64,000 bases of DNA from Pseudomonadota bacterium. GTDB lineage: Bacteria > CALINM01. Position 1 is the first letter of the stretch. The number at the start of each line of letters is the position of its first letter. The DNA lies in the NCBI GenBank assembly GCA_026418415.1, contig JAOABK010000003.1, positions 1,685 to 65,684 on the forward strand, given 5' to 3'. Made by a program: the position numbers and the translations under genes. This document shows, in pieces, positions 10,461 through 63,567 of this stretch. The notes beneath the pieces were generated by a model. It saw only the letters and a list, made by a program, of their open reading frames with translations, was not told where the DNA came from and did not search any database.

Positions 10461-11055
10461 TTTTTATCCTTATAATCCGTTTTTCTGTAACTATTATATC
10501 CATCTTTTGATCATAGTAACCTAATGGGACCTTTTCTATAATCTGCAATTCAAAAGCTATTCCAATTTTCTTAACCTCAGGTCTTAAATCAGGTAATAAT
10601 CTGTCATAAAAGCCACCGCCATATCCCATTCTACCTCCACTCTCATCAAAGGCACTTCCTGGAACAATAGCACAATCTATATCTTTAACATTAGCACTTT
10701 TGTGGATTTCAGGAGAGGGCTCTAAAATACCATATGCTCCTTCTTTCAATCCCTTTAGATTTTCAACATAGTAAAGCAAGAGTCTTTTATTTTCTACATC
10801 TGTAAGGGGAAGTATAACCTTTTTTTCTTCTTCAAAGCACCTTTCTATTATCGGGATTGTTCTTACCTCACTTCTAAAATTAACAAATAGAAAAATGTTT
10901 TTAGCTAACGTAAATTCACTAATTTTCCAAAGATTATCTTTTATCATACTACTTTTAAAAATAATTTCTTCTTCTGTAAGCTTATCTCTTTCTATTAGAA
11001 TTTTTTTTCTTAGCTCGTTTTTATAAATTTTTAGATTCATTTTGCGCCTCTTCAA
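10453..11055 (-). CDS. 5-formyltetrahydrofolate cyclo-ligase
   Basis: Hallmark GYGGGFYDRLL motif; ~200 aa. Confidence 0.8.
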   Translation of the reverse strand: MKRRKMNLKIYKNELRKKILIERDKLTEEEIIFKSSMIKDNLWKISEFTLAKNIFLFVNFRSEVRTIPIIERCFEEEKKVILPLTDVENKRLLLYYVENLKGLKEGAYGILEPSPEIHKSANVKDIDCAIVPGSAFDESGGRMGYGGGFYDRLLPDLRPEVKKIGIAFELQIIEKVPLGYYDQKMDIIVTEKRIIRIKNA

Positions 11056-11743
11056 TGAACTTTCTTATTGCAGAAACTGCATCTTTACTCATACTGATAA
11101 ATTCTACTCCCATACCAGCTGGATATTTAGATTTTTTCTTATTTTTTTCATCATTAATCCAGACAATTTTAGCCCATGTTTTTATAAGATTGCCTGTATT
11201 AGGTATAAGAAATTTCATTTCCAAAAGTGCACCCTCTTTTAATTGAACATCTCCAGCTAAAAATGCACCGCCCTCGCTTATATCAAGTATTGCACCCTTT
11301 TCCATCTTATCCTCAAAACCATAAAATGCGGGCATATTTATTTTTACTCTTTCTTTTTTTCTCTTATCCAATCTTAGAAACTCATTTACTATTGCTATAA
11401 AATCTTCCCGTGTGAATGGTTTTTTTAATATCCTGTTAACTTCAAGACCTTGAACAATCTTTTTTAGCTCATCATCAATAAATGCAGAAACCAAAACCAC
11501 TGGTATATCTTTAAAGGATTGATCTCCCTTTACTTGCTTAATAAATTCCAGTCCATTCATAACAGGCATTTCATAATCTACAAAAATTAGATCCGGTCTT
11601 ATCACATTAACTATTTCAAGCCCCTCTTTGCCATTAAAGGCAGTAAAGATTTCACAATCAATATTTGATAAGTAGTTTTTCTCTAATTCGAGAAAAAATT
11701 TTACATCGTCAATAAGAAGAATTTTAGAATTCATAGACACCAT
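11021..11743 (-). CDS. Response regulator receiver domain fused to PilZ (c-di-GMP-binding) domain
   Basis: REC motifs (ILLIDD..., DLIFVDYEMPVMNG, KPF) followed by PilZ signature (RKKERVKI...DISEGGAFL). Confidence 0.75.
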   Translation of the reverse strand: MVSMNSKILLIDDVKFFLELEKNYLSNIDCEIFTAFNGKEGLEIVNVIRPDLIFVDYEMPVMNGLEFIKQVKGDQSFKDIPVVLVSAFIDDELKKIVQGLEVNRILKKPFTREDFIAIVNEFLRLDKRKKERVKINMPAFYGFEDKMEKGAILDISEGGAFLAGDVQLKEGALLEMKFLIPNTGNLIKTWAKIVWINDEKNKKKSKYPAGMGVEFISMSKDAVSAIRKFIEEAQNESKNL

Positions 11744-11801
11744 TATATTTTATTTTAGCCATTCAAACAAGAACGTTTGATTTGTAAAAGAAAACCCTAA
11801 T

Positions 11802-12608
11802 TTATTTACTTTGTCTTATCAGCATACTCAGTATAAGGATAAGAAGATTAATCAAAACAATTGTCGCTCCTGTAGGTAGATTTAAAGCAAATGAAACAAC
11901 AATGCCAGACAAAACTGATAGAATGCTAAAAAAACAGGATATGATAATTGAGGATTTAAAACTTTTTGCAAATTGAAGAGCTGAGACATTAGGTAAGATT
12001 AGAAAAGAGGAAACAAGCATTATCCCAATTATTTTCATGGATAAAACAACAGTTAAAGAAGTAAGCAAAATTAGTATCCCGTTAATCATTTTTGTATTGA
12101 TACCCGATACTTTTGCTAACTCTTCATCAAAAGTAGAAGAAATCAATTTATTATAAAGTGCAATTATGAAGCCAATTACTATTAGAGAAAGTAAAATAGA
12201 TAAAATCATCTCTTCAAAGGAAATTGTTAGAATATTACCAAAAAGGAAACTAAATAAATCTACATTAAACCCCCCTGCTATACTTGCCATGATAATTCCC
12301 AAAGAAATTCCTGCTGATGAGACAATACCAATTGCTGTATCGCCGGATAACTTGGTTTTATCTATAAGTTTGAGTATTCCTAAACCACTTATTAGTGTTA
12401 CTGGTATTGCCATATAAAGGGGATACATTTGCAAAAGTAATCCCAACGCAACCCCACTTAAAGTTACATGTGCAAGTCCATCACCTATTAAAGAAAGCCT
12501 TCTTAATACAAGAAATATACCCAAGGATGAACATAAAATAGCAATAAAAACACCTGTGATTATTGCTCTTTGAATGAAACCAAAATTGAGTAGCTCAATT
12601 ACATCCAT
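11802..12608 (-). CDS. znuB: Zn/Mn ABC transporter permease (ABC-3 family)
   Basis: Polytopic membrane protein with ZnuB-like N-terminus (GIFLVLRRLSLIGDGLAHVTLSGVALGLL). Confidence 0.8.
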   Translation of the reverse strand: MDVIELLNFGFIQRAIITGVFIAILCSSLGIFLVLRRLSLIGDGLAHVTLSGVALGLLLQMYPLYMAIPVTLISGLGILKLIDKTKLSGDTAIGIVSSAGISLGIIMASIAGGFNVDLFSFLFGNILTISFEEMILSILLSLIVIGFIIALYNKLISSTFDEELAKVSGINTKMINGILILLTSLTVVLSMKIIGIMLVSSFLILPNVSALQFAKSFKSSIIISCFFSILSVLSGIVVSFALNLPTGATIVLINLLILILSMLIRQSK

Positions 12609-12707
12609 TTCTTACTCCAGGCTTTAATCAATCCTATCTCATCTTATTATTAAAATGTAAAAAAATTTTATCCTTGGAGCTATATTCTAATTAATTCTCA
12701 TCTACTA

Positions 12708-13445
12708 TTAATGCCTATGACATATAATATGTTGTGAACCATACCCAAAATAATCGGACATTTTCTCAGACTTACAAAAATCATCAAAAGTCCCAAAAAA
12801 TATTATTTTTCTATCAAAATACATAAGTTTTTTTGCATACCTTCCAGCATTGCCAGTATCATGGGTTACAAGAATTATTGTGACACCTTTATCTGAATTG
12901 AGATGCCTTAATACCTCAAAAAATCTTTCTCTCGTCTCTGGATCCAAAGCAGTTGTTGGCTCATCAAGTATAAGGATTTCTGGATCTCCAACAAGTGCTC
13001 TTGATATTAAAACTCTTTGAAGCTGGCCACCCGAAAGCTCTGTAATATTTTTATCTCTAAGTTCTAATATTCCAAGCATTTCAAGAGCTTCATCAACTTT
13101 TTCATAATCCTCCTTTTTAAATCTTACAAAACTCTTACTAACCAACCCAAGGGCAACTATTTCTTTAACAGTAGCTGGAAAAAAGGGGCTTAAATTAATT
13201 TTCTGGGGGACATATCCAATTCTATTCCAATCTAAAAATGACTCGATGGGTACATTAAATAATTTAACCTCTCCCTCATCTTTTTTTACTAAATTTAACA
13301 TAGCCTTAAGTAATGTGCTCTTACCTGAGCCATTAGGACCTGATAGAGCAACATAATCCCCTGCTTCTATAGCAAAGGATACGTCTAAAAAAATATTAAC
13401 ATCTTCGTATTTTACTGCTAAATTTTTTACCTCTATTACTGGCAT
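12708..13445 (-). CDS. znuC: Zn/Mn ABC transporter ATP-binding protein
   Basis: Walker A GPNGSGKST, signature LSGGQLQRV, Walker B ILILDEPT; His-rich C-terminus. Confidence 0.8.
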   Translation of the reverse strand: MPVIEVKNLAVKYEDVNIFLDVSFAIEAGDYVALSGPNGSGKSTLLKAMLNLVKKDEGEVKLFNVPIESFLDWNRIGYVPQKINLSPFFPATVKEIVALGLVSKSFVRFKKEDYEKVDEALEMLGILELRDKNITELSGGQLQRVLISRALVGDPEILILDEPTTALDPETRERFFEVLRHLNSDKGVTIILVTHDTGNAGRYAKKLMYFDRKIIFFGTFDDFCKSEKMSDYFGYGSQHIICHRH

Positions 13446-14374
13446 TCTAAACCCATTCTAAACTGCTTTAAATTGTTTTCCATTATTTCTAAAAAACTAA
13501 TACCCCTATCTAAGTCATCTTTAGAGACATTATGGGCGGGATTAATTTTTAACAAAGATACACCAGCTTCCATTGATAAAACATTCGCTATACGAGGTGA
13601 CATTAGTTCTTCATAAAATACATATTTAATATTGTGCTTTTTTATACTATCAATCATTTCTGCAATTCTTTTTGGTGTGGGCTCTTCATCGGGTGATAAA
13701 CCCTGATAGGCAGAAATATATTTCAAACCATAACGCTCAGTGAGATACCCAAAAGCAAAATGTCCAGCATGGTAAAAATATTTATTTTTACAGTTTTTTA
13801 GTCCCTGTTTATATTTCTCATCAATTATATCTAAGGCTTTTTTGTAAGAATTAGCGTTTTCTATATAAAACTCCCTGTTTAAAACATCCTTAGCAATCAC
13901 CCCTTCTAATATATTATCAATCATAACTTTAGCATTTTCAAAATCTAACCAGATATGGGGATCTATCTCATGATTGTGAAAGTGGCCATTATGTGAGAAA
14001 GTATCCTCTTTTTTAGCAATTCGTCTTTTTAAAACTCCCCTGCTTGTATCAATAACAAGGAGTTTTTTATTATCCGTGCTTCTTATAATTTTTTCCGCCC
14101 ACCTTTCCATCTCTTTACCAGTATAAACAAATATATCAGCCCTGCTAATTTTCACAATATCTTCTGGTTTGGGTTCAAAATTGTGGGCATCAACCCCCGG
14201 CGGAAGAAGCAGTTCAACTCTAACTTTATCTTTACCAATATGTTTACAAAAATCATAGAGAGGAAAAAGGGTTGTAATAATTAATATTCTATTGTCAGGA
14301 GCAATTTTTTTTTGATCCTTACAACAAAAAAGCAGTAATAATAGGATAATTAGAAATAAGGACCTAAATTTCAT
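13436..14374 (-). CDS. znuA: Periplasmic metal (Zn)-binding protein, ABC-3 SBP family
   Basis: Signal peptide; ZnuA/TroA-like motifs; His-rich loop SHNGHFHNHEIDPHIWLD. Confidence 0.8.
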   Translation of the reverse strand: MKFRSLFLIILLLLLFCCKDQKKIAPDNRILIITTLFPLYDFCKHIGKDKVRVELLLPPGVDAHNFEPKPEDIVKISRADIFVYTGKEMERWAEKIIRSTDNKKLLVIDTSRGVLKRRIAKKEDTFSHNGHFHNHEIDPHIWLDFENAKVMIDNILEGVIAKDVLNREFYIENANSYKKALDIIDEKYKQGLKNCKNKYFYHAGHFAFGYLTERYGLKYISAYQGLSPDEEPTPKRIAEMIDSIKKHNIKYVFYEELMSPRIANVLSMEAGVSLLKINPAHNVSKDDLDRGISFLEIMENNLKQFRMGLECQ

Positions 14375-14816
14375 TATTCTTTACTATTACCCCCTGATCT
14401 TTATTTAAACAATTACTACAAAACCCATTTACTTGAAAAAGATGAGAAATTATAGATCCTTTCAATATTTCCCTGACAAATTCCACTATTTTTATCTCTG
14501 GACAGTAATCAATATCATAGACCCTTTTGCAGGACAGGCAAACAAAATGGTGGTGATGATTTTTATTATTGCAAAGATAATAATAGAGTTGTCTATCGGT
14601 GTGAATTACTCTAAATATTACACCACCTTCAGCCATCTCCTCTAAATTTCTATATACTGTTGGTAGCCCAATCTTTTTAAATTTTATTTTCATCTCTTTC
14701 CAGATCTCTTCGGGGCTCATAAAATAACGCCTCTTTCCAAGGATATTCAAGATTTCAAGTCTTTTTGGAGTAACCTTAAGCTTTAGATTTCTAAGTATAT
14801 GAGAATAATTATTCAT
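14364..14816 (-). CDS. zur: Fur-family metalloregulator, probably Zur
   Basis: Fur-like HTH (KVTPKRLEILNIL), HHHH and CxxC metal motifs; first gene of the znu operon. Confidence 0.75.
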   Translation of the reverse strand: MNNYSHILRNLKLKVTPKRLEILNILGKRRYFMSPEEIWKEMKIKFKKIGLPTVYRNLEEMAEGGVIFRVIHTDRQLYYYLCNNKNHHHHFVCLSCKRVYDIDYCPEIKIVEFVREILKGSIISHLFQVNGFCSNCLNKDQGVIVKNNEI

Positions 14817-14935: not shown

Positions 14936-15286
14936 TTGTTATATGATATTTACATGCCCATACCATTAAAAATAGTTATAACACTCTTAATAATTATGCT
15001 TGCTTCAGAATTAGGAAAAAGATTGCCCCATCTGAGTGGTCTTATAGCTACTATGCCAATCACCACACTTTTGGTTCTCCTATGGCTAAATTACGAAACA
15101 GGAACTAACTATCAGATTTTAACTAAATTCACGTTAGCGGTAATTTTTGGTATTTTCCCAAGCATTTTCTTTTTCATAGTACTTTATTTTTGCTTTTTAA
15201 AGGGATTTTCTTTTTATATATCTCTATTTTTTGCCTTTCTCGTATGGGGCTTTGGTGCTATTATTCATCAGTTTTTTTTGAGGTAA
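14936..15286 (+). CDS. Small integral membrane protein (4 predicted TM)
   Basis: 116 aa, strongly hydrophobic throughout; the only long + strand ORF here. Confidence 0.4.
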   Translation: MLYDIYMPIPLKIVITLLIIMLASELGKRLPHLSGLIATMPITTLLVLLWLNYETGTNYQILTKFTLAVIFGIFPSIFFFIVLYFCFLKGFSFYISLFFAFLVWGFGAIIHQFFLR

Positions 15287-16901
15287 TCTTAAATTTTTGT
15301 AAAAACCAAGGCACTATCATAACTAAAGATATTATTAGTATTGAAATGATGAGAGGGAAAAAATTGCCAGTAGAAATTAGTTGAAAAATACTACTGCCAA
15401 AATATACATAAGCAATGCAAGCAGGTAACATAAATATAAATGATGCAATAACATAATGGATGAATTTAACAGGCGTTATACCAAATAGATAGTTCAAAAC
15501 TGGGAAGGGAAAAATAGGAATGATTCTTGTAAAAGCAACAACCTTCCAGCCATTTTTATCCACAAGATCTTTTAGTCTTTTCCATCTTTTTACTCCGAAA
15601 AGTTTTTTAACATAATCATGGAATATATACCTTGAAAGCAAAAAGGGTATAGAACATCCAATAGTTGCTCCCGATATGGCAAATATAACCCCTAAGACTG
15701 GTCCCCAAATTATTCCTGATAATATGGTTAGAAGGAGGCTTGGAAAAAAGAAGGTTGGTCCAATAGAATAAATTAAAAGATAAACCACTGGTGCAAGAAT
15801 CTTTGAGCTCCTTACTAAATTAAGAATTCTTTCAATGGTAATTAATCCTGTCTTTTCAAGATTATAAACAAGTATGCTCCCCAAAATAATAATCATTAAT
15901 ACAAAAATTTTAAAAAAATTTAGTTTTGAGAGTGTTGCCACCAATATTTGGTTTATTAATTTATGAGCTTCTCCTATAGGTTTCTTTAAATCAATGCCTA
16001 AAATGTTTTCATAAATATGTTTAGAAGGCAGATTTCTTTTCATAAACCTATTTCTACATCCCATGCATGATGTAAGAACTGGGGTTGAGTTTGCATGGAT
16101 ATTATTCAAAAACTCTTGAGCCACCTCTTTATCTAATCTATTCGCCAAGCCTCCAAGGCCACAGCATCTGGGGTTATCAATTTTCCCAACAATTGTTTTT
16201 TTAAAACTCATCTCTATGTTTACCTTAATCTCATTATTTACAAAGTTGGGACAAGGATTATGTAATATAAAACCCTTTTCCTCATCCGATACATCTTCTT
16301 CAGTAACTAATTCTGATACATGAATTAATTCAAATTCAGGTAAATATTCTTTAAAAATCTTCTTACAGTTAGCACAGGCAAAAATTATTTTTGAAACACC
16401 TGCATTCTCAAGTTTTTCAGACAAAGATTTAGAAAAATCTCGAAGTGCGGACAAATCACCATTTTGCCACATGGGATCACCACAACAATGGATAGCAAGA
16501 CCAACCTTCGATCCAATTTTTTTTTCAATCCAGTTTTTTAAGCCAAATACTAATTTTCTGCCCAAGGAAATAAGTGAACAGCCGGGGAAAAAAATCGTTT
16601 CCCTATCTTCAATATGCTGGAACGGGAAAGAGCTTAATCTATTTGCATATCTTCTTGAACCAATTATCCCTTCAATAATAGGTTTCGTTAGGGTCCCTTC
16701 CTTTATCAGAATACTTTTAACTTCATAAATAGCCTTTGATGGCTCGATATCTAATGGACAAGCCCTATCGCAAAGCCGACAATTGGTACATATAAAAGCA
16801 GATTTATCTTTTTTTAGATATATCTCCTTAGGATATCCATATTTTTTCAAATAGGGACAAACAAGGCATGAGCCACAAAGTGTACACTCTAAAATCTTCA
16901 C
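15261..16901 (-). CDS. Fusion protein: 2x[4Fe-4S] ferredoxin + two CCG domains (HdrD/GlcF/GlpC-like) fused to a C-terminal DedA/TVP38/TMEM64 membrane domain
   Basis: CTLCGSCLVCP and CTNCRLCDRACP clusters; CCG motifs (FFPGCSLIS...CCGDPMW, HNPCPNF...CCGLGG); C-terminal multi-TM DedA-like region (RYIFHDYVKKLFG...FTRIIPIFPF). ORF track starts it at 16955 (TTG). I place the start at GTG 16899-16901, preceded by GGGAG SD and overlapping the upstream TGA stop (GTGA coupling). Confidence 0.6.
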   Translation of the reverse strand: MKILECTLCGSCLVCPYLKKYGYPKEIYLKKDKSAFICTNCRLCDRACPLDIEPSKAIYEVKSILIKEGTLTKPIIEGIIGSRRYANRLSSFPFQHIEDRETIFFPGCSLISLGRKLVFGLKNWIEKKIGSKVGLAIHCCGDPMWQNGDLSALRDFSKSLSEKLENAGVSKIIFACANCKKIFKEYLPEFELIHVSELVTEEDVSDEEKGFILHNPCPNFVNNEIKVNIEMSFKKTIVGKIDNPRCCGLGGLANRLDKEVAQEFLNNIHANSTPVLTSCMGCRNRFMKRNLPSKHIYENILGIDLKKPIGEAHKLINQILVATLSKLNFFKIFVLMIIILGSILVYNLEKTGLITIERILNLVRSSKILAPVVYLLIYSIGPTFFFPSLLLTILSGIIWGPVLGVIFAISGATIGCSIPFLLSRYIFHDYVKKLFGVKRWKRLKDLVDKNGWKVVAFTRIIPIFPFPVLNYLFGITPVKFIHYVIASFIFMLPACIAYVYFGSSIFQLISTGNFFPLIISILIISLVMIVPWFLQKFKITSKKTDE

Positions 16902-18694
16902 AAACTTATACTCCCAAAACAAGATGAACCCCTTTTTGCTGTACAGGCATAACAATATTCAGAAGTAATAATTTTTCTTCCCTTTAGTTCCTCAAAGGAC
17001 CCTATTTTATTTATATGGGATACTTTCAATCCTGAGGCATTATTAAAATCACAATCATAAATAGTTCCGTCAAATCCAATGTTTACAAGATTTTTGCACA
17101 TAAGCCCTTTTATATTTTCCCTATTAAAATTTGATGCTAATAAAAACATATATTTATCATAGAGATTACTTAACTTAAGATTTTCCTCAAATCTTCCGAG
17201 AGGCACATTTGTTATCGAAATAAGTTTATTAAATTTAATTCCCAAATCGCTTTTAAGCGCTTTTTCAAATTTTTGATAACTTTCTTCCGAGGGAAGTTCA
17301 AAATTAACAGGATTATAAACAATATTTAGCTCAAATTTTTCACCAAATCCTATACGATTGAGTTTTTTTAGCATTTTTATTGAATCTTCAAAAGATCCCT
17401 TTCCCCTTTGCCTTTCGAATTCAGTCATATCAAAGGATGGAAAAGATACATAAAGTGCCACCCTTGAATCGCTTAATCTTTCCAACAACTCTTCTCTAAC
17501 TAACAAAGCGGTTAGATTAGTTCTAAAAATTATCTTTGGAAAATACTCCTTAGCCTTATCTAATAGAAAACTGATATGGGGGTTTAATTCTGGTGCACCT
17601 CCAGTAATATCGATTATCTCATATTTATTAATATCAATAAGTTGAAAAAGTCTTTCCATCGTTACCAATTCCATCACCCTATTATCATAAGGATTTGCAG
17701 AGAGATGGCAGTGGCTACAAGTTTGATTACATACTCCACCCACATTAATTTGTATGACCCTTATCTCTTCTTTTTTTAACTCTATCTTATTTTTTCTTAT
17801 ATTTTCTTCGAAAGAGACATAAACATTATTATTACCACAGCAATCAAAATACTTCACAATCTTCTCGCCCTTATAAGCAGAAACGGTTATAGAGAAAAAA
17901 TTTATATCCTCAACAACTCTCCAAGGCTCAGATTCTTTCTTTATTACTACCACATCTTTAAATCCCGCTTCTCTGAAGGCATTGATAAAGTCTTTTTCTT
18001 CTAACGCCCCTGATATGCATCCAGACCATAGTTCGGGATCTTCCTTTAAATATGGAGGGACTTTTTTATCAGATACAATATCACTTATTACCGCCCTACC
18101 ATTCTTTTTTAGCACTCTATATATTTCTCTAAAAAGCTCTTTTTTATCCTCATCTCTCACAAGATTAAGAACACAGTTGGATACCACAACATCAATACTA
18201 TCATTTTTAATTAGTGGACTTTCCCTTTCTAACTCTCTTATTGTGAACTCAAGATTAATGTAGTCTTCAATATTTCTGATTGGGTTTTCCTTTAAATAAT
18301 TTTCTAATTTTTCTAAATCAAGCCTTAAATTCTGTATTCTACCCCTTCTGAACTCAAAATTTTTATACCCCAATTTTTCTGCCAAATGATTTTCATATTT
18401 TCTTGCAAGATTTAACATCTCTGTATTCATATCAACACCTATTACCTTTCCTTCTTTACCCACTATCTGAGCAATAATATAAACTAACTTACCGCCACCA
18501 GAGCCTAAATCAAGCACTGTCTCTCCTTCTAATATATATGCAGAAGGATCACCACAACCATAATCCTTCTCTATTATCTCTTGAGGAATAATCTTTAGTA
18601 ATTCATTGTCATATTTTGTAGGACAACAAAGAGTTAAATCCTTTATTTGTGAAGCTTTTTTATATCTTTCATAAACCATTCTTTCTTGATCCAT
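16898..18694 (-). CDS. Fused arsenite S-adenosylmethionine methyltransferase (ArsM-like) / radical SAM protein (ArsS-like, arsenosugar-type rSAM with Cys-rich C-terminus)
   Basis: N-half: ArsM motifs YGCGDPSAYILEGETVLDLGSGGG, SNCVLNLV (As-binding Cys), WSGCISGA. C-half: radical SAM CNQTCSHC in the context IQINVGGV...; Cys-rich tail (CYAC...SSCFG). Single uninterrupted 598-aa ORF. Confidence 0.65.
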   Translation of the reverse strand: MDQERMVYERYKKASQIKDLTLCCPTKYDNELLKIIPQEIIEKDYGCGDPSAYILEGETVLDLGSGGGKLVYIIAQIVGKEGKVIGVDMNTEMLNLARKYENHLAEKLGYKNFEFRRGRIQNLRLDLEKLENYLKENPIRNIEDYINLEFTIRELERESPLIKNDSIDVVVSNCVLNLVRDEDKKELFREIYRVLKKNGRAVISDIVSDKKVPPYLKEDPELWSGCISGALEEKDFINAFREAGFKDVVVIKKESEPWRVVEDINFFSITVSAYKGEKIVKYFDCCGNNNVYVSFEENIRKNKIELKKEEIRVIQINVGGVCNQTCSHCHLSANPYDNRVMELVTMERLFQLIDINKYEIIDITGGAPELNPHISFLLDKAKEYFPKIIFRTNLTALLVREELLERLSDSRVALYVSFPSFDMTEFERQRGKGSFEDSIKMLKKLNRIGFGEKFELNIVYNPVNFELPSEESYQKFEKALKSDLGIKFNKLISITNVPLGRFEENLKLSNLYDKYMFLLASNFNRENIKGLMCKNLVNIGFDGTIYDCDFNNASGLKVSHINKIGSFEELKGRKIITSEYCYACTAKRGSSCFGSISL

Positions 18695-18706
18695 ATAATA
18701 CCCCTT

Positions 18707-19378
18707 TTATTTATAAAATTTGATTAGTTTCTCTGGTTTGAATCCTGCCAAGAAAAGAATAACTATAAAAACATTTTTAAGACTATGAAGTATTGGATAA
18801 AAAAGTCCACCTTTTTCAATTCTTCTTGATGAGACCAGTACTTCTTTATTAATCATCTTAACTTTTCCAGCCTTTCTTAGCCTTAAAATAAGGTCTAAAT
18901 CCTCAAGAAAGGGGTAATTTTTTATACCACCAATAACCCTCAAAATTTCTTTTTTAAAAAAAATCGCCTGATCTCCATAGGGAAGATAATGTAACTTGGA
19001 ACGAATATTAGCAAATATCTCAACTAATTTCACAAAAAAATTATTTGATAGATACTTTAATCTGAAAAAACCTGCAATTTCATTGTCCTTTAATTCAAAA
19101 TCCTTTAAGGTAACCTCTTTAGATAAAATAGTATCAGCATGAAGAACTAATATAATATCTCCTTGAGCATTTTCAATGCCCTTATTAATTTGTAATCCCC
19201 TTCCTTTAGGTGAATTAATTATTTTACAATTAAACTTTTTTGCTATATCGATTGTGTTATCTGTGCTTCCACCATCTATAACAATAACTTCATAAGGCTT
19301 TAGATCCTGCAATCGTTGTAATGTCTTCTCTAAAAAAAGGGCTTCATTATAGACTGGAATTATAATAGATAATCTCAT
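18707..19378 (-). CDS. Small GT-A/family-2 glycosyltransferase-like transferase (resembles the 'rSAM/selenodomain-associated transferase 2' group)
   Basis: LSIIIPVYNE, DxD-like VIVIDGGSTD, ~220 aa single domain; immediately upstream of the ArsM/ArsS fusion. Confidence 0.6.
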   Translation of the reverse strand: MRLSIIIPVYNEALFLEKTLQRLQDLKPYEVIVIDGGSTDNTIDIAKKFNCKIINSPKGRGLQINKGIENAQGDIILVLHADTILSKEVTLKDFELKDNEIAGFFRLKYLSNNFFVKLVEIFANIRSKLHYLPYGDQAIFFKKEILRVIGGIKNYPFLEDLDLILRLRKAGKVKMINKEVLVSSRRIEKGGLFYPILHSLKNVFIVILFLAGFKPEKLIKFYK

Positions 19379-19381
19379 TTA

Positions 19382-19792
19382 TTATAGACACATCTCTTTA
19401 TAAGGAAATTCCTGAATACCACCTTCGAGTATATATAGTCTTTTTTCCTCTATTCCTCTACTTCTCATATATTCATAAGTATTTTTTGCCGCACCACCAC
19501 CTCTTGGACAAACTATAACAATTTCTAAGTTATCTGACTTTACCTTTTCTACTATCCTATCTAATTTTGCCTTATCCTGATCGCTCTTTACAGGATATGC
19601 CCCAGTAGCAATAGATCCCTTTAAGTGCTTTTTATTAAAGTCTTCATCTTTTTGAACATCAATTATATGGATTTTTTTACCACTATCCACCCATTTTTTT
19701 AACACCTCTGCTTTCAGATAGTTATAGTTTTGTGCCTCTAAACTATTAATAAAAAAAACCAGAAAAAATAAAACAAATAATATCCTTTGCAT
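19382..19792 (-). CDS. Secreted rhodanese-domain sulfurtransferase-like protein
   Basis: Signal peptide; single rhodanese fold with active-site Cys loop VIVCPRGGGAAK. Confidence 0.65.
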   Translation of the reverse strand: MQRILFVLFFLVFFINSLEAQNYNYLKAEVLKKWVDSGKKIHIIDVQKDEDFNKKHLKGSIATGAYPVKSDQDKAKLDRIVEKVKSDNLEIVIVCPRGGGAAKNTYEYMRSRGIEEKRLYILEGGIQEFPYKEMCL

Positions 19793-19801
19793 TATTCCTC
19801 C

Positions 19802-20446
19802 TTACTTAAGCTTATAAATCAAAATAACTGGATAACCATCTTTTGCTGGTAGAATCATATCATTTCCCCGAAAGTAGGAGTTTGGAGTAATAAATCTCTG
19901 AATAGAATTTGTCATTGGATAATTTGCATTACTTGTTATTGAAATCCAGCAACTTTCAAGACAGGTAATACACCCTGTTTTCTGTTCTTCTGAAGCTAAT
20001 CTATTTCCACCAAATTTAATTCTGAAACCCCTTCCAGAGGAATCTTTAAAAATATTTTCTAATTGATACTCCTTACCATTAACAATAGCTGTAACTATAA
20101 GTTCATCGCCTTCTACATATTTGCCCACACTATCTTTATTGAGATTGTTGCCTGGTTTTGCACCGATCTTAATTAGGGCATCATAAAAATCAAGTTGATT
20201 ACAATAGGCTTTTAAAATAGCCCTGTCACCGAATCTCCCATCTTTGAAAACTACTCCCCAATGGACAGTTGGCTGGTAAAGGTGCATAACATTTACTTCT
20301 GTATATATAAGAACCGCTTTATTTCTTTCATCAATTATTAAAGGTTTTTCCTTTATGGGAAGTACATTTAAAGAAACAGAAAAAGCTTTTGAACAAAGAA
20401 AAACAAGAATAAACAAAAAAACCTTACTCGTCTTTACCATAACCAA
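19802..20446 (-). CDS. Hypothetical secreted protein with CxxCxxxC motif
   Basis: Signal peptide; conserved-looking core with TGCITCLESC motif; first gene of the minus-strand operon. Confidence 0.4.
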   Translation of the reverse strand: MVMVKTSKVFLFILVFLCSKAFSVSLNVLPIKEKPLIIDERNKAVLIYTEVNVMHLYQPTVHWGVVFKDGRFGDRAILKAYCNQLDFYDALIKIGAKPGNNLNKDSVGKYVEGDELIVTAIVNGKEYQLENIFKDSSGRGFRIKFGGNRLASEEQKTGCITCLESCWISITSNANYPMTNSIQRFITPNSYFRGNDMILPAKDGYPVILIYKLK

Positions 20447-20517
20447 TTTTCTTGATGATTTTAATTAATGAGAAAATCAGTAGTCAAATCGGAAATATTA
20501 ATTAAAATATTTTTTTT

Positions 20518-20534
20518 TATAGATATTATCTATA
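20518..20534. promoter_or_regulatory. Perfect 8-1-8 palindrome TATAGATA-T-TATCTATA in a divergent promoter region (candidate operator)
   Basis: Read directly: tatagatattatctata; lies in the ~180-bp AT-rich gap between divergent operons. Confidence 0.35.
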
Positions 20535-20628
20535 GAAAATTAAATTAAAATAGTCTCAAATTTTTGACAAAATATTTAAAATCTTTTTTTGTATACATTT
20601 TTTTTATTTAGAAATTATAATATAGTGA

Positions 20629-21870
20629 GTGAAGATAAAAGTCTTTTTTATCAAAAATAGTCATAATTTCTATAGTTTAGCTACTCTTCTTTCCGCAGTA
20701 GAGAACTTACAAAATATCTATCCTGAAATAATCCCCTATGCCTTCTTAATAGACCTGAATATTAAAAACCTTCCCTATGATAAAATTATTTTTTGTTTTT
20801 CCTATAACACAATTTCTTTCTATAGTGAATATGATGAGCTAAAAAAAACTATTAAGAATTACAAGAGTGATAAAACTTATTTTCTCGCAGGCGGTCCTCA
20901 CCCTTCTGCTAAGCCTGAAGAATTACTAAATATGGGATTTAATACCGTCATAATAGGTGAGGGGGAACAAGCAATTATTGATTATCTCCAAATGCTGAAA
21001 AATAATATAAATCCACCAAGGATATTAAGAAAACAAGTTTCAGAGTTAGACTATTTCCCTTCTTTCCCATGCAAGTCTTTTACTTACAAACCAATAGAAA
21101 TTTCAAGAGGCTGTCCTTACGGTTGTTACTTTTGCCAGACTACCTATCTTTTTTCGAAAAAAATGAAACATAGAAGCATAGAAAATATCAAGTCCCACGT
21201 TACTAACGCCTTCGAAAGAGGCATTAAAGACTTTAGATTTATTACACCAAATGCTTTGGGTTATGAAAGTCATGGCAACAAACCAAATACAAAGGCAATA
21301 AAAACCCTACTTTCTTCAATCAGAGATATTATTAAAGATAAAGGGCGAATCTTTTTTGGTACCTTTCCTTCTGAGGTTAGACCTGAGTTTCTAAATGAAG
21401 AAGTTTTGAAAATTTTAAAAGATCATGTTGATAACAAAAGAATTCATATTGGTTTGCAATCGGGTAGTGAATCGATGCTAAAAAAATCTCATCGGGGGCA
21501 TACTGTATCAGACGTTGAAAAGGCAATAGAAGTTTGTATTAAAACTGGTTTTGAAATAGATATTGATATAATATTAGGCATGCCAAATGAAACACAAGTT
21601 GATATGGAAAGGACTATGGATTTTATAAAAAAATATGCAAGTGAAAAGTTAAGTTTTCATGTTCATTACTTTATCCCATTACCAGGGACCCCTTGGTCAG
21701 ACTATCCTCCCACCCCGCTTCCTGAACAATTTAAAAAGGAACTCGAAGTATTAGTCGGAAAAGGAAGGCTTTGGGGGGCATGGAAACGTCAAATGGAGTA
21801 TTTTAAGCTAATTGAAACAAAAAAAACTTTTAATATTAATGAATTAGATTTAAAATTAACCTCATGTTAG
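20629..21870 (+). CDS. B12-binding-domain / radical SAM protein
   Basis: N-terminal Rossmann-like B12-binding-type region; radical SAM CxxxCxxC (CPYGCYFC). Confidence 0.6.
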   Translation: MKIKVFFIKNSHNFYSLATLLSAVENLQNIYPEIIPYAFLIDLNIKNLPYDKIIFCFSYNTISFYSEYDELKKTIKNYKSDKTYFLAGGPHPSAKPEELLNMGFNTVIIGEGEQAIIDYLQMLKNNINPPRILRKQVSELDYFPSFPCKSFTYKPIEISRGCPYGCYFCQTTYLFSKKMKHRSIENIKSHVTNAFERGIKDFRFITPNALGYESHGNKPNTKAIKTLLSSIRDIIKDKGRIFFGTFPSEVRPEFLNEEVLKILKDHVDNKRIHIGLQSGSESMLKKSHRGHTVSDVEKAIEVCIKTGFEIDIDIILGMPNETQVDMERTMDFIKKYASEKLSFHVHYFIPLPGTPWSDYPPTPLPEQFKKELEVLVGKGRLWGAWKRQMEYFKLIETKKTFNINELDLKLTSC

Positions 21871-23879
21871 AAAAGATTAAAATTAAAAAGCCTATTTTGC
21901 ATATTTCTTTGTATATACTCTGCATAGCTATGTTTGCTCAATTTTCTCTAAGCCTTATTCTAAATGTTGTTGGATACTATTTTGATATGAAGGAGACAAT
22001 TAGAAAAACTGGGGAATCAAAAATAGATAAAATAAACAATTTTATTGAAAGAATTGTTTCCCTGGGAGTACCCATAAACGAAATTGCACAATTAAATCAA
22101 GAGTTAGAAAAAGAAGTAAAGGATGACGTATTTCAATTTTTCACTGTAGTAGATGAAAATAATAATATCCTCTATCACAGCGATCCAATAGTGGTAGGAA
22201 CAAAATTCCCTATCGAACAAAATAAATTAGAGGCAAAGAGAGAATTAAAAGTAACAATATTTCCCTATAACGATGTTTTTCTTATTTCAAAACCAATTTA
22301 CGATTATAAAAAGACAAAAGTTGGCTTCATAATTGCAGCATATTCTCCAAACATAATCTATAAGAAAGTCTTCTGGGTTTTCTTAAGAGCCTCCTTTGCT
22401 TCATTTATAACTGGAATTTTTGGTATTGCTTTAATAGTTTACTTTTATAAAAAACAGATTCAAAAACCTTTAACTACATTGTTAGAAGGGCTTGAAAAAT
22501 TTAAAGAAGGTAAATTTGAAGAAATTCCAATAGTAGATGAAGATACTGAAATCAGTGCGATCATCTCTTCAATTAACAATATGGTAACAACTCTAAAAAA
22601 GACCTTTATAGAAAAAGAAACTCTTCTAAATAAACTAAAAAATGAAGAGGAAAAATTAAGAAAAATTATAGAAAAAACTGAAATGGGAATAGCGGTAATA
22701 AAAAATGATAAATTTGTATTTGCAAATCCTGGTTTTTTAAAAATATTAAAAATAGATTATACCTATCATTTAATTGGCAAGAGTATATACGATTTTTTCT
22801 CGCCCAGTGAAAGATTTTATTTTCGTGAAGCCTTCAATGAAGTATTAGAAACAGGACAGAAAAAAACTTTTGACACTGTTAAAATGTATGATGCACAAAA
22901 TAATGAAATCTTTTGTTCTCTGGAAGCTTCGATTCTTGAAACTTCAGAATGGGGCAAAAAACTTCTTAATCTTACCTTCCAAGATATAACAGAGAAAGTA
23001 TATTTTATGGAAGAACTAAAATCCAAAAATAAAGAGTTAGAGCAACTCATTGAAAAATATAAGTCAACACAGTTAGCTCTTCAAATAGCAAACGAAAAAT
23101 TAGAAAATGCATTGACAGCTGTAGAAAAGGCAAATGAAGAGCTCAAGAAGATTGATAATATGAAAGATGTTTTCTTCTCAACAATAACTCATGAATTAAA
23201 AACACCTCTTTCCCTAATTCATGGTTATATAAGCATTTTAAAATCTGATAGTAATGTTAAAGCATCAAATATGACGCTTGATATTGTAAATGCCATCGAA
23301 AGAGGAGCAAAAAGACTAACAAGCCTGACTGAAGAAATAATGGAGCTTATGAAAATCAGGTCTGGCAAACTGGTTCTTAATCCGACGCTAACCTATTTAA
23401 AATTTATAATAAACCCTCTAATAAATGAGTTAGATCCTCTATTGAAATCAAAAAATTTACATATTGAATTATACAACATTGAACAAATGCCCATGATCAG
23501 TTTAGATACAAAGAAGTTTGAAACTGCATTAAGAAATATAATCGTAAATAGTATAAAATATTGTAAAGAAAACGGAAAAATCATTATAAACGCCACACAA
23601 GAAAATATAGACGATAAAAAGTTTATCAAAATAGCCATTTCAGATGAGGGGTGCGGGATCTCTCCTTTTAATATAGAAAAGATTTTTACCGAGTTCTTTA
23701 CATTACCTCCACCTCAATCTGGAAAGGAACTTCCAATTAGAGGAACTGGTTTAGGCTTATCAATAGCAAAGGGTATAATAGAAGCCCATGGCGGTAAAAT
23801 ATGGGCAGAAAGCCCTGGCTATGATCCAGAAAACAATCCAGGTACAACCTTTTTTATAACAATTCCTATTATTGATTAA
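21864..23879 (+). CDS. Sensor histidine kinase (2 TM periplasmic sensor, HAMP-like, PAS, HisKA, HATPase_c)
   Basis: H-box HELKTPLSLIHGY; G-boxes GTGLGLSIAKGIIEAHGG; TM segments; PAS-like region. No cognate response regulator adjacent. Confidence 0.8.
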   Translation: MLEKIKIKKPILHISLYILCIAMFAQFSLSLILNVVGYYFDMKETIRKTGESKIDKINNFIERIVSLGVPINEIAQLNQELEKEVKDDVFQFFTVVDENNNILYHSDPIVVGTKFPIEQNKLEAKRELKVTIFPYNDVFLISKPIYDYKKTKVGFIIAAYSPNIIYKKVFWVFLRASFASFITGIFGIALIVYFYKKQIQKPLTTLLEGLEKFKEGKFEEIPIVDEDTEISAIISSINNMVTTLKKTFIEKETLLNKLKNEEEKLRKIIEKTEMGIAVIKNDKFVFANPGFLKILKIDYTYHLIGKSIYDFFSPSERFYFREAFNEVLETGQKKTFDTVKMYDAQNNEIFCSLEASILETSEWGKKLLNLTFQDITEKVYFMEELKSKNKELEQLIEKYKSTQLALQIANEKLENALTAVEKANEELKKIDNMKDVFFSTITHELKTPLSLIHGYISILKSDSNVKASNMTLDIVNAIERGAKRLTSLTEEIMELMKIRSGKLVLNPTLTYLKFIINPLINELDPLLKSKNLHIELYNIEQMPMISLDTKKFETALRNIIVNSIKYCKENGKIIINATQENIDDKKFIKIAISDEGCGISPFNIEKIFTEFFTLPPPQSGKELPIRGTGLGLSIAKGIIEAHGGKIWAESPGYDPENNPGTTFFITIPIID

Positions 23880-25242
23880 AGATATTTATTAAAGTTTTAG
23901 CAATTATTGGTATTTCCTCATCCCTAACTGTTCTAAAATCAATTATGCAGGCCTGTTCTTTTCTTCTTGCAACTATAGGTGGACTGGAATGTAAAAGCCT
24001 TAACACCAAATCCTCTTCTGATATAAGGGGATGCTTAATCCTTAAAACACAGGTTTTCAATTCAACCCCTGGAAGACTTCCACCACCTGGAGCTGAATAA
24101 TCTGTTGTTAATTGGAAAAATTCTTTATCTATCTTAGATCTTAATAGCTTTAATAATCTTTTACCACGCTTTGTTATAACTTCGATTGGTTCTAAAAGCA
24201 TACTCAATACAGGAGAGTAACCATATGCGCTTATAGACAAATAACTAAAGAGTCTTTCTAAATAATATAAAGTAAATTTATCGGGTCTAAGAGCTCTATA
24301 CATAGGATTTTTTTTCATCAATTCTATTAAATCCTTTCTTCCTACGATTATTCCAGCCTGAGTGCCTCCTAAAAGTTTGTCACCACTAAAAGATATTATA
24401 TCAACACCCTTTTTAACTTCTTCATCTATTATTGGTTCGGCATTACTAATGTTTTTTATAACTGAAATCGCACCACTTCCCTCATCAAAGTAAAGGGGTA
24501 AATTATATCTTCTTGATAACTCAACCAGTTGTGTAGTTGAAACTTCTTCCACAAATCCTTTCAGGACAAAATTGCTTCTATGAACCTTTAAAATTAATCC
24601 CGTATTGTCATTTATTGCCCTTTCATAATCAATAGGCTTGGTTTTATTTGTTGTTCCAACCTCTTTCAATATTGCTCCCGATGCCTTCATTATTTCTGGT
24701 ACTCTAAAAGAGCCACCAATTTCAACAAGTTCCCCCCTGGACACTATAACTTCTTTGCCCTGTGCTAAGGTATTTAATACTAAAAGACACGCTGAAGCAT
24801 TATTATTAACTACAAGAATATCCTCTGCACCAAACAAATCTGGTTTTAGATGCTTTAGACGAGAACCTCTTTTCCCTTCTACCAGATCAAATTCAAGATC
24901 TGAATAGTTACAAAGAAGAGGCTTTATCTCATCTATTATCTTTTCAGAAAGTGGAGCTCTGCCTAAATTTGTATGGATTACCGTTCCGGTGGCATTAATA
25001 ACCCTCTTTATCTTTGGAGATGATATCTTTCCTATAAATTTTTTCAAATTATCAGTAAAATTTACATTTGAAAATAGATCTTCTTTTTCTTCAAAAGTAC
25101 CATTTTTTATCGACTCTCTTTGCTCATCAAGCATAAGAGTAATTGCTCTTTTTACAATTTCCTTTGGAAAATCAATACCCTCTTTCTCTGCCCTTTCTAA
25201 AAGTATGTCCATCTTTGGTAAATAATCTTTAAATTTATTCAT
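23869..25242 (-). CDS. selA: L-seryl-tRNA(Sec) selenium transferase
   Basis: SelA motifs INATGTVIHTNLGRAPL, VSRGELVEIGGSFRVPEIM, PLP-Lys region FSGDKLLGG; ~457 aa. Confidence 0.85.
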   Translation of the reverse strand: MNKFKDYLPKMDILLERAEKEGIDFPKEIVKRAITLMLDEQRESIKNGTFEEKEDLFSNVNFTDNLKKFIGKISSPKIKRVINATGTVIHTNLGRAPLSEKIIDEIKPLLCNYSDLEFDLVEGKRGSRLKHLKPDLFGAEDILVVNNNASACLLVLNTLAQGKEVIVSRGELVEIGGSFRVPEIMKASGAILKEVGTTNKTKPIDYERAINDNTGLILKVHRSNFVLKGFVEEVSTTQLVELSRRYNLPLYFDEGSGAISVIKNISNAEPIIDEEVKKGVDIISFSGDKLLGGTQAGIIVGRKDLIELMKKNPMYRALRPDKFTLYYLERLFSYLSISAYGYSPVLSMLLEPIEVITKRGKRLLKLLRSKIDKEFFQLTTDYSAPGGGSLPGVELKTCVLRIKHPLISEEDLVLRLLHSSPPIVARRKEQACIIDFRTVRDEEIPIIAKTLINIFNQ

Positions 25243-42006: not shown

Positions 42007-42080
42007 GGGCTCATAGCTCAGCTTGGTAGAGCCACCGGCTCATAACCGGTCGGTCCCTGGTTCGAATCCAGGTGAGCCCA
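42007..42080 (+). tRNA. tRNA-Met(CAU) elongator type (could be tRNA-Ile2 if lysidinylated)
   Basis: Cloverleaf folded by eye: acceptor GGGCTCA/TGAGCCC, anticodon stem ACCGG/CCGGT, loop CTCATAA (anticodon CAT), T-arm CCTGG-TTCGAAT-CCAGG. G1-C72 paired, so not initiator. No encoded CCA. Confidence 0.85.
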
Positions 42081-42150
42081 CTAACTTTATTATCTATGGC
42101 TTTTTTATTTATAAATATGTTGCATATAGGCGTTTTTATTAAGCAAAAAA

Positions 42151-44017: not shown

Positions 44018-44384
44018 TTGAGCAGGGGATACGGCTACTCCCAAATAGGGAGAGGAAAGTCCGGGCTCCAGAGGGCAGAGTGCTTCCTAACGGGAAGTTT
44101 CGGCGACGAAAGGAAAGTGCCACAGAAAACATACCGCCTTGCAATATTGCAAGGTAAGGGTGAAAAGGCGAGGTAAGAGCTCACCGCTCCAATGGTGACA
44201 TTGGAGGCATGGCAAACCCCACTCGGAGCAAGACCAAATAGGCATTGTAGCGCATATGCGCTGGCTTCTGCCCGAAGCCCTCTTTATAAGAGGCAATGCG
44301 GGTAGGTTGCATGAGATAGCTTGCAAAAGCTATCCTTAGATAAATGGCCGTACTCGACAGAACCCGGCTTATACCTCTGCTCAA
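44018..44384 (+). ncRNA. rnpB: RNase P RNA, bacterial type A
   Basis: Universally conserved segments GGAAAGTCCGGGCTCC and ACAGAACCCGGCTTA present. P1 pairing between 5' TTGAGCAG and 3' CTGCTCAA. TATAAT at 44007-44012 just upstream. GC-rich island in AT-rich DNA. ORF-track ORFs 44087-44326 and 44181-44450 (minus) are spurious. Confidence 0.9.
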
Positions 44385-44393
44385 AATAAAAAT

Positions 44394-63339: not shown

Positions 63340-63493
63340 TATAATTTAGCATAAAATATGCCCAAAAAGTAGTTGAAAAGTTATGTTTTTTTCGCAAAAA
63401 TTAGGCAAAGCTCTGACAGTTGACAGTTTTTTACCATTAATAATTTTAAGGTTTATTTAATTCTTTCTTTAGGAATCCACGAAATTATTTTAG

Positions 63494-63567
63494 CTGGGGC
63501 GGGAGGCATCGAACCTCCAAACTCCAGAGTCAAAGTCTGGTGGCTTTACCAATTCGCCTACGCCCCA
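63494..63567 (-). tRNA. tRNA-Gln(UUG)
   Basis: Reverse complement TGGGGCG-TA-GGCG...CCAGA-CTTTGAC-TCTGG...GGAGG-TTCGATG-CCTCC-CGCCCCA-G: U1-A72 pair and G73 discriminator typical of tRNA-Gln; anticodon TTG. Confidence 0.8.

Follow-up and report, generated by a model that had tools for sequence, protein, structure and literature searches.

In this study, an operon of five genes was analyzed in a stretch of 64,000 nucleotides (nt) from a Pseudomonadota bacterium (assembly GCA_026418415.1, contig JAOABK010000003.1, positions 1,685 to 65,684). This whole 64-kb stretch is called the window below, and coordinates are those of the window unless another locus is named. The operon, at 15261-20446 on the minus strand, probably encodes a compact, anaerobe-type ArsS pathway for organoarsenicals of the arsenosugar type, coupled to a conserved envelope module, with the flanking genes excluded. 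Its fused architecture and the conserved module of an Fe-S/CCG-VTT fusion protein, a YdjY-domain protein and a rhodanese set the operon apart from the known arsenosugar core. The undescribed part consists of these three proteins, of which YdjY and the rhodanese are periplasmic.

All five open reading frames (ORFs) were present in the ORF list of the window. In minus-strand order they are a YdjY-domain gene (19802..20446; 214 amino acids (aa), or 212 aa with the NCBI-annotated start at about 20440), a gene for a secreted single-domain rhodanese (19382..19792; 136 aa; PF00581), a gene for a GT-A transferase of glycosyltransferase family 2 (GT2), TIGR04283, labeled 'arsenosugar biosynthesis glycosyltransferase' (18707..19378; 223 aa), an ArsM-ArsS fusion gene (16898..18694; 598 aa, ArsM-type at about 1-290 and radical-SAM ArsS with a Cys-rich DUF3641 tail at about 300-598), and the Fe-S/CCG-VTT fusion gene (15261..16901; 546 aa). 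The start of the last gene was set to the GTG at 16901, which overlaps the TGA of the ArsM-ArsS gene as GTGA; the ORF finder had used an upstream TTG at 16955, and the 546-aa length matches the NCBI annotation of the same protein (P0121). The spacings are +9 nt between YdjY and rhodanese, +3 nt between rhodanese and GT2, +12 nt between GT2 and ArsM-ArsS, and -4 nt between ArsM-ArsS and CCG-VTT. The tight packing described in the initial annotation, with gaps or overlaps of -4 to +12 nt, is thus borne out. No terminator-like site was found on the minus strand within the operon. Because of these spacings, the lack of an internal minus-strand terminator and a conserved -35/-10 pair upstream, 15261-20446 is predicted to be a single operon. 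The GC content of the five genes (0.29-0.33) and their GC at third codon positions (0.21-0.25) equal those of neighboring housekeeping genes (window mean 0.326). An island acquired by horizontal transfer was rejected on this composition, which equals that of the rest of the window, and in compositional terms the label 'island' given to the region earlier is not justified.

Searches with hidden Markov models from Pfam and NCBIfam confirmed all domain calls of the initial annotation and both fusions. The radical S-adenosylmethionine (SAM) half of the fusion enzyme belongs to the ArsS family, as had been proposed: it matches TIGR04167 over model positions 2-303 of 303 with 309.6 bits, narrowly above the curated cut-off of 300, and PF12345 (DUF3641) with 133 bits. 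The radical-SAM motif CNQTCSHC (CxxxCxxC) is invariant among homologues, and so are the C-terminal cysteines C233, C248 and the CxxC at 281/284 of ArsS; C292 is nearly invariant. The TIGR04167 family includes selenoprotein members, and the 'GSSC' of this half is the Cys version of their GxxU motif. Selenocysteine read-through at the TGA of ArsS into the next gene was ruled out; the ArsS model is matched to its final position, and the next gene lies in another frame. The N-terminal half is related to ArsM and is not a generic methyltransferase. Among solved structures it comes nearest to CmArsM (the ArsM entries from Cyanidioschyzon; E 1e-37), whose As(III)-ligand cysteines C72/C174/C224 align with C46/C174/C226 of the query. 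The SAM-binding glycine-rich motif VLDLGSGGG is present; a CC pair at residues 23-24, outside the aligned region, precedes C46 by 22 residues (28 for C44 of CmArsM). Judged from these motifs, the N-terminal half is very probably an ArsM-type enzyme with an As(III)-thiolate site and a SAM site. About 49 clusters of fused ArsM-ArsS homologues were found in the protein database.

The 223-aa transferase matches TIGR04283 over its full length (model positions 1-221 of 221; 210.9 bits, cut-off 182) and PF00535 with 87 bits, and carries a C-terminal hydrophobic segment at residues 191-214. ArsM-type enzymes commonly serve detoxification, and the operon might be read as plain arsenic detoxification through methylation to volatile methylarsines, the other genes having general stress or envelope roles. 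This reading is very improbable. The ArsS domain fused to ArsM is complete, with its radical-SAM motif and C-terminal cysteines intact, and the obligate pairing with TIGR04283 points to biosynthesis beyond methylation; moreover, arsR, acr3 and arsC were not seen adjoining the operon.

The core can be compared with the cyanobacterial arsenosugar pathway (ArsM and ArsS of Synechocystis, and the families TIGR04167, TIGR04283, TIGR04282 and TIGR04169). Adenosylation of trivalent dimethylarsenic, DMAs(III), to 5'-deoxy-5'-dimethylarsinoyladenosine (DDMAA) is known only from the published ArsS of Synechocystis (cited to Cheng et al. 2021). The operon shares with that pathway the ArsS family, TIGR04283 and an ArsM-type enzyme with As(III) ligands, and the chemistry is expected to be similar, from As(III) through methylarsenite(s) to a 5'-deoxyadenosyl arsenical. 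Unlike the cyanobacterial pathway, ArsM and ArsS form one polypeptide here and the ArsM half stays below all model cut-offs; DUF2064/TIGR04282 and TIGR04169 are absent from the window; CCG-VTT, YdjY and a periplasmic rhodanese are added; and the operon is carried by uncultured organisms related to lineages of strict anaerobes that cycle sulfur. The initial annotation had also claimed that the locus has no characterized counterpart. This was overstated. ArsM, ArsS and TIGR04283 together are a known kind of system and form the set that NCBI curates for arsenosugar biosynthesis (NCBIfam labels TIGR04283 and the AhpD-like TIGR04169 as arsenosugar-associated), ArsS chemistry has been described in print, and NCBI already lists this very fusion protein, from a metagenome-assembled genome, as 'arsenosugar biosynthesis radical SAM protein ArsS'. 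Within the searchable literature, no paper was found that links the CCG-VTT fusion, YdjY or rhodanese to an arsenosugar context.

The 546-aa fusion protein begins with HdrC-like motifs for two [4Fe-4S] clusters (about residues 1-85), followed by two HdrB-like CCG motifs (about 100-300) and a VTT/DedA domain (about 320-546). PF09335 (VTT) scores 87.8 bits against a gathering score of 33.9, PF02754 (CCG) and Fer4_8 also match, and NF045663 is aligned over its positions 317-638; the top NCBIfam match of the CCG half is 'diclust_near_Sec'. Both sets of CCG cysteines (C108/139/140/176/179 and C217/246/247/279/282) and the second ferredoxin motif (C38/41/44/48) are invariant among homologues. The first ferredoxin motif (C6/9/12/15) is nearly invariant, and its form here, CxxCxxCxxC-P, is one residue short of the canonical one. 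HdrB and HdrC are the top PDB matches by sequence profile and by fold (HdrB probability 1.00), and the AlphaFold2 model has a pLDDT of 87.8. The order of two ferredoxin four-Cys motifs followed by two five-Cys CCG motifs is that of HdrD/HdrBC and other CCG proteins (DsrK, GlpC, sHdr). Unlike HdrD/HdrBC, the membrane partner is a VTT/DedA domain in cis instead of a haem-b protein, and the first ferredoxin motif is shorter by one residue. The VTT half, a member of the COG0398 subfamily, shares 27% identity with E. coli YdjX over 209 aa (E 4e-25); homologues carry the JGI label 'YdjX (TVP38/TMEM64 family)/Fe-S oxidoreductase'. These features suggest that a YdjX-type VTT domain carries, on its cytoplasmic side, an Fe-S/CCG module that acts as an HdrD-like thiol/disulfide or persulfide reductase.

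YdjX and YdjZ are members of the COG0398 DedA subfamily, which has been argued not to be an undecaprenyl phosphate flippase and to resemble eukaryotic phospholipid scramblases (Todor et al. 2023, PMC10127716). The commonest fusion partner of this subfamily is a pyridine-nucleotide-disulfide oxidoreductase, and the subfamily was associated with aerobic metabolism (PMC10127716). CCG-VTT similarly joins a member of the same DedA subfamily to a cytoplasmic module of the disulfide-reductase type. Unlike the published fusions, its reductase is an Fe-S/CCG protein instead of a flavoprotein, and it is found in strict anaerobes. Full-length CCG-VTT fusions account for about 15-20 representatives at 50% clustering among 1.84 billion proteins. 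A convergent gene for a small membrane protein of the PRK09272 / PF28289 BV97_02767 family (14936-15286, plus strand) overlaps the CCG-VTT gene by 26 nt at its 3' end; it is kept only in the two closest long contigs, L001 and L002.

The first protein of the operon, described earlier as a secreted CxxCxxxC protein, is a YdjY-domain protein (family NF040466 / PF27149; 97.1 bits with NF040466, cut-off 50) with an N-terminal signal sequence. Its motifs H-W-G and T-G-C-I-T-C-L-E-S-C-W-I-S are invariant, the CxxCxxxC in all of 25 homologues, and it is about 35-36% identical to the E. coli lipoprotein YdjY, which keeps CxxCxxxC. The rhodanese (PF00581, 48.2 bits) has a signal peptide and the active-site loop C-P-R-G-G-G-A; signal peptides and a C-P-R-G-x-x-G-A loop are conserved in nearly all of 25 neighborhood rhodanese homologues. 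Specific kinship of this rhodanese to E. coli YnjE was not detectable. Both the window and the close relative L005 have the YdjY gene, which is missing at the same position in the syntenic L001 (6717-6907) and L002 (6740-6956). This pattern points to a recent gain or loss of one component of the module.

A comparable neighborhood of genes occurs in E. coli, where ydjX (VTT), ydjY, ydjZ (VTT), ynjA (AhpD/CMD-like), ynjBCD, ynjE (rhodanese) and ynjF form a cluster of unknown function (L085, 6151-14152). The operon resembles this cluster in combining a YdjX-type VTT domain, YdjY and a periplasmic protein of the rhodanese family. The E. coli cluster has no ArsS, ArsM, TIGR04283 or CCG domain; equivalents of YnjA, YnjBCD and YnjF are found neither within nor adjoining the operon, and the rhodanese of the operon is single-domain. 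The operon therefore shares a module with ydjXYZ-ynjABCDEF and, lacking the full gene set, is not a member of that system. In the Firmicute Acetoanaerobium noterae (L086, 1021-9521), an unfused Fer4+CCG protein is encoded with a ynjBCD-like ABC transporter, a CDP-alcohol phosphatidyltransferase, YdjY and two VTT proteins. This set, which amounts to the E. coli one plus a CCG protein, suggests that CCG, VTT and YdjY may be an ancient functional unit; the envelope module appears to predate its association with ArsS.

A scan of species-representative genomes with an alignment of CCG-VTT gave 80 loci (212 confirmed relatives), hosted by Nitrospirota/Thermodesulfovibrionales, Caldimicrobium (Thermodesulfobacteriota), Smithellaceae/Syntrophales, Desulfobulbaceae and Geobacteraceae (Geobacterales). 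The ORFs of 84 loci were then clustered all against all; many contigs are short, and the neighbor counts are lower bounds. The most constant neighbor of CCG-VTT is a TIGR04283-like GT2 gene, found in 50 of the 84 loci and usually immediately upstream. ArsS-containing genes occur in at least 36 loci, as ArsM-ArsS (12), ArsS-ArsM (6), DUF2064-ArsS (2) or ArsS alone (16). DUF2064/TIGR04282 is present in at least 36 loci, a double rhodanese in at least 27, a single rhodanese in at least 24, YdjY in at least 22 (and a second YdjY type in at least 8), YedF in at least 18, DUF3047 in at least 16, MauE/DoxX in at least 15, a BioB-like radical-SAM protein in at least 10, and NifS-like and TIGR04169 genes in at least 6 each. 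The reversed fusion ArsS-ArsM, of about 660 aa, was found at L009, L013, L016, L019, L021 and L022, and the DUF2064/TIGR04282-ArsS fusion at L057 and L060. The fusions in other orders and lineages appear to be independent Rosetta-stone events, and the finding of ArsM and ArsS fused in either order speaks for channeling or coupling of methylation and adenosylation.

Conservation of the neighborhood extends well beyond close relatives, across the 80 species-level loci. L001 and L002 are syntenic with the window over the whole region around the operon, including selA, the kinase gene, the gene for a B12-binding radical-SAM protein and znuABC. In Caldimicrobium, the order GT2-rhodanese-ArsM-ArsS-CCG-VTT-DUF2064 is kept with entirely different flanks; Caldimicrobium thiodismutans is a cultured carrier. 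The locus of Dissulfurispira thermophila T55J (L167, AP022873.1, 1466751-1488418), where the cassette lies around 1.474-1.479 Mb, reads ArsS-YedF-rhodanese-GT2-CCG-VTT-DUF2064-DsrE-like. It is preceded by genes for a YedE-type Sulf_transp protein and a LysR regulator, and ArsM is lacking within 10 kb. D. thermophila is a cultured, fully sequenced sulfur disproportionator and is experimentally tractable. A divergent fusion (P0022, L168) stands in the order YedF-rhodanese-GT2-fusion-CCG-VTT. In a reverse scan, 80 environmental ArsS loci were sampled. The AhpD-like TIGR04169 accompanies ArsS in 26 of them, ArsM in 20, GT2 in 18, DUF2064 in 14, and a VTT gene, mostly without CCG, in 13; CCG and VTT together were found in 2-3 and a double rhodanese in 3 of the 80, and YdjY in none. 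A VTT protein is thus a recurring accessory of ArsS, and the form with CCG-VTT, YdjY and rhodanese is a restricted elaboration.

These distributions also bear on whether two independent systems simply lie side by side, namely an ArsM/ArsS/GT pathway and a Ydj-type module for membrane homeostasis (VTT, YdjY and rhodanese) unconnected with arsenic. The VTT/YdjY module does occur without ArsS in E. coli, in Acetoanaerobium and in many Geobacter and Desulfobulbaceae loci; GT2 and a fused ArsM-ArsS (P0028, L169) stand together without CCG-VTT; and YdjY is absent from the syntenic L001 and L002. Such a juxtaposition nevertheless seems improbable, given the 4-nt stop/start overlap between ArsS and CCG-VTT (translational coupling), the recurrence of the same adjacency across phyla with unrelated flanks, the VTT gene near ArsS in 13 of the 80 independently sampled environmental loci, and the position of GT2, which is almost always directly upstream of CCG-VTT.

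For the ArsS pathway coupled to the envelope module, the following route is proposed. By homology, the ArsM half is predicted to methylate As(III) and the ArsS half to attach a 5'-deoxyadenosyl group to a trivalent methylarsenical, giving a DDMAA-like nucleoside. The TIGR04283 GT-A transferase, which ends in a hydrophobic helix, would process the adenosyl- or ribosyl-arsenical at the membrane. Proteins of the YdjX-type DedA subfamily are believed to transport lipids or amphiphiles and not undecaprenyl phosphate. The VTT domain may carry the arsenical, as such or linked to a lipid, through the inner membrane. At the cytoplasmic face, the CCG domain would hold As-S or S-S species in the reduced state or accept sulfane sulfur. 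On the other side, periplasmic YdjY, with its putative Cys3 + His site, and the rhodanese may bind, sulfurate or desulfurate the arsenical, so that thio-arsenicals would be formed or thioarsenate would be stripped of sulfur to supply As(III). Such a periplasmic As-S step is plausible by the analogy of thioarsenate with thiosulfate. As circumstantial support, As(III) induces a sulfurtransferase gene (F816_RS0102005) and a GT2 gene (F816_RS0102010; q = 3.7e-103) of Thioalkalivibrio jannaschii that stand beside arxRSX, in an arx/ars neighborhood (PMC6620896, supplementary Table_8), and Tv. thiocyanoxidans has a TVP38-GT-GT-...-DsrE run (G372_RS0107580-7600; PMC6620896); this pair and this run are only putative homologues of the cassette genes. 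Taken further, CCG-VTT, YdjY and the periplasmic rhodanese might form a hitherto unrecognized envelope machine that exports or flips the product of ArsM-ArsS and TIGR04283, an organoarsenical that could be a lipid-linked or thiolated compound of the arsenosugar type; this extension is offered tentatively and is doubtful at present.

Several observations weigh against an arsenical pathway of this kind. The ArsS cut-off is passed narrowly. The ArsM half falls below every curated cut-off (NF040538, 306 against 500; PRK11873, 195.7 against 263; NF038099, 112.9 against 400), where the models are full-length ArsM models and the half found here is without the ArsM C-terminal domain. Its top-scoring model is of the arsinothricin type, methylating an As-C compound; because of this, the substrate and the order of the methylation and adenosylation steps are uncertain. 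GT2 is a steadier partner of CCG-VTT, at 50 of 84 loci, than ArsS, at 36 of 84, and the VTT/YdjY module occurs without ArsS at some CCG-VTT loci as well as in E. coli and Acetoanaerobium, so its native substrate need not be arsenic. At the fused ArsM-ArsS locus L169 only GT2 accompanies the fusion. The roles given above to VTT, CCG, YdjY and the rhodanese are what we infer for them, the missing arsR, acr3 and arsC count here too, and arsenosugars from such anaerobes are not reported within the searchable literature.

Alternatively, the operon may serve the trafficking of chalcogens. The 'ArsM/ArsS' protein would then methylate and adenosylate a selenium or sulfur species, and rhodanese, YdjY and CCG-VTT would import and reduce species of the S(0)/Se(0) type, like a sulfane-sulfur relay feeding an Hdr-like enzyme. 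Several of the features already described are in line with this: the scores of the ArsM half under all ArsM cut-offs, the selenoprotein members of TIGR04167, the 'diclust_near_Sec' match of the CCG half, and the YedE-type gene in Dissulfurispira, several of the hosts being sulfur disproportionators. Related loci have a sulfur/selenium-trafficking flavor, with YedF (TIGR03527, a marker of selenium metabolism; 18 of 84), double rhodaneses (27 of 84), and NifS-like, DsrE-like and AhpD-like genes. None of these genes occurs in the window; YedF is absent from all 64 kb of it, as are NifS-like and AhpD-like genes, and adjacency to selA is limited to three close relatives. The activity of the ArsS family on DMAs(III) was shown biochemically, and the ArsM half keeps all three cysteines that bind As(III). 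The literature on sulfur disproportionation describes a different cluster, YTD, and leaves these genes unmentioned; identity of the cassette with YTD was rejected on its different gene set. Chalcogen trafficking is thus unlikely to be the function of the operon.

The operon is separated from a divergent gene by an AT-rich intergenic region of 182 nt (20447..20628). A candidate promoter of the operon, TTGACT-N18-TAAAAT, lies at 20487..20458 on the minus strand, and the box TTGAC-N18-TAAAAT is common to the divergent intergenic regions of the window, L001, L002 and L005. The region also contains GTCAAAAATTTGA, an element shared with close relatives, and the partial inverted repeat GTCAAAAnTTTGA, which is conserved in the window (20447-20628), L001 (6718-6906), L002 (6741-6955) and L005 (4290-4498). 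The GTCAAAAnTTTGA element and the TTGAC-N18-TAAAAT box are candidates for the operator and the promoter; promoter-like sites in the region are not more numerous than in shuffles. The initial annotation had described a control region of about 180 bp, AT-rich and bearing a palindrome. The length is right and a perfect 8+1+8 palindrome (17 bp) exists at 20518-20534, but it is neither significant nor conserved: 21% of shuffles of the region equal it, and it is absent from three syntenic relatives. The palindrome was rejected as an operator and is probably fortuitous.

The divergent gene encodes a B12-binding radical-SAM protein (TIGR04013, 403.7 bits). It shares a 7-nt overlap with a gene for a PAS histidine kinase, which selA (TIGR00474, 498 bits) faces in convergent orientation. 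These three genes stand near the cassette only in L001, L002 and L005 and are absent at all other cassette loci. They were rejected as parts of the system and are bystanders. Because the flanking genes adjoin the cassette in three close relatives only, the selenium link based on selA and the control region shared with the B12 radical-SAM and kinase genes, both put forward earlier, fail. Directly downstream of the operon, all on the minus strand, are a Fur/Zur-like regulator gene (14364-14816), znuA (13436-14374), znuC (12708-13445) and znuB (11802-12608), followed by a response-regulator + PilZ gene (11021-11743, minus strand); roughly 10 kb separate the latter from the PAS kinase called 'orphan'. 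The Fur/Zur-znu-PilZ order (11021-14816) is the same in L001 and L002. An Rfam scan detected neither a riboswitch nor a SECIS-type element close to the operon, and no rRNA in the window; it located a full-length class A RNase P RNA (44019-44387, plus strand, 310 bits). The window also contains tRNA-Met (42007-42081) and tRNA-Gln (63493-63567).

In sum, the operon bears on a pathway of which only the first two steps, those of ArsM and ArsS, are understood and in which the roles of the co-inherited transferases are unknown; the searchable literature reports arsenosugars from cyanobacteria, not from anaerobes. In the operon and its relatives, in sulfidic anaerobes, this pathway appears firmly tied to a membrane module for redox and translocation and to proteins that handle sulfur in the periplasm, which supplies candidates for the missing downstream steps of arsenosugar synthesis and for the biological origin of thio-arsenicals. 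CCG-VTT may be seen as the Fe-S, anaerobic counterpart of the fusions of DedA with disulfide reductases that were earlier tied to aerobic metabolism. The operon also links a tractable chemistry, arsenic speciation, to an uncharacterized module of COG0398 DedA, YdjY and rhodanese that E. coli carries too. If the envelope-machine reading is true, strictly anaerobic sulfur-cycling bacteria would make envelope-directed arseno-(thio)sugars or arsenolipids, and the COG0398 DedA/YdjY module, including ydjXYZ-ynj of E. coli, would gain its first function, the redox-coupled translocation of a chalcogen- or metalloid-bearing amphiphile.

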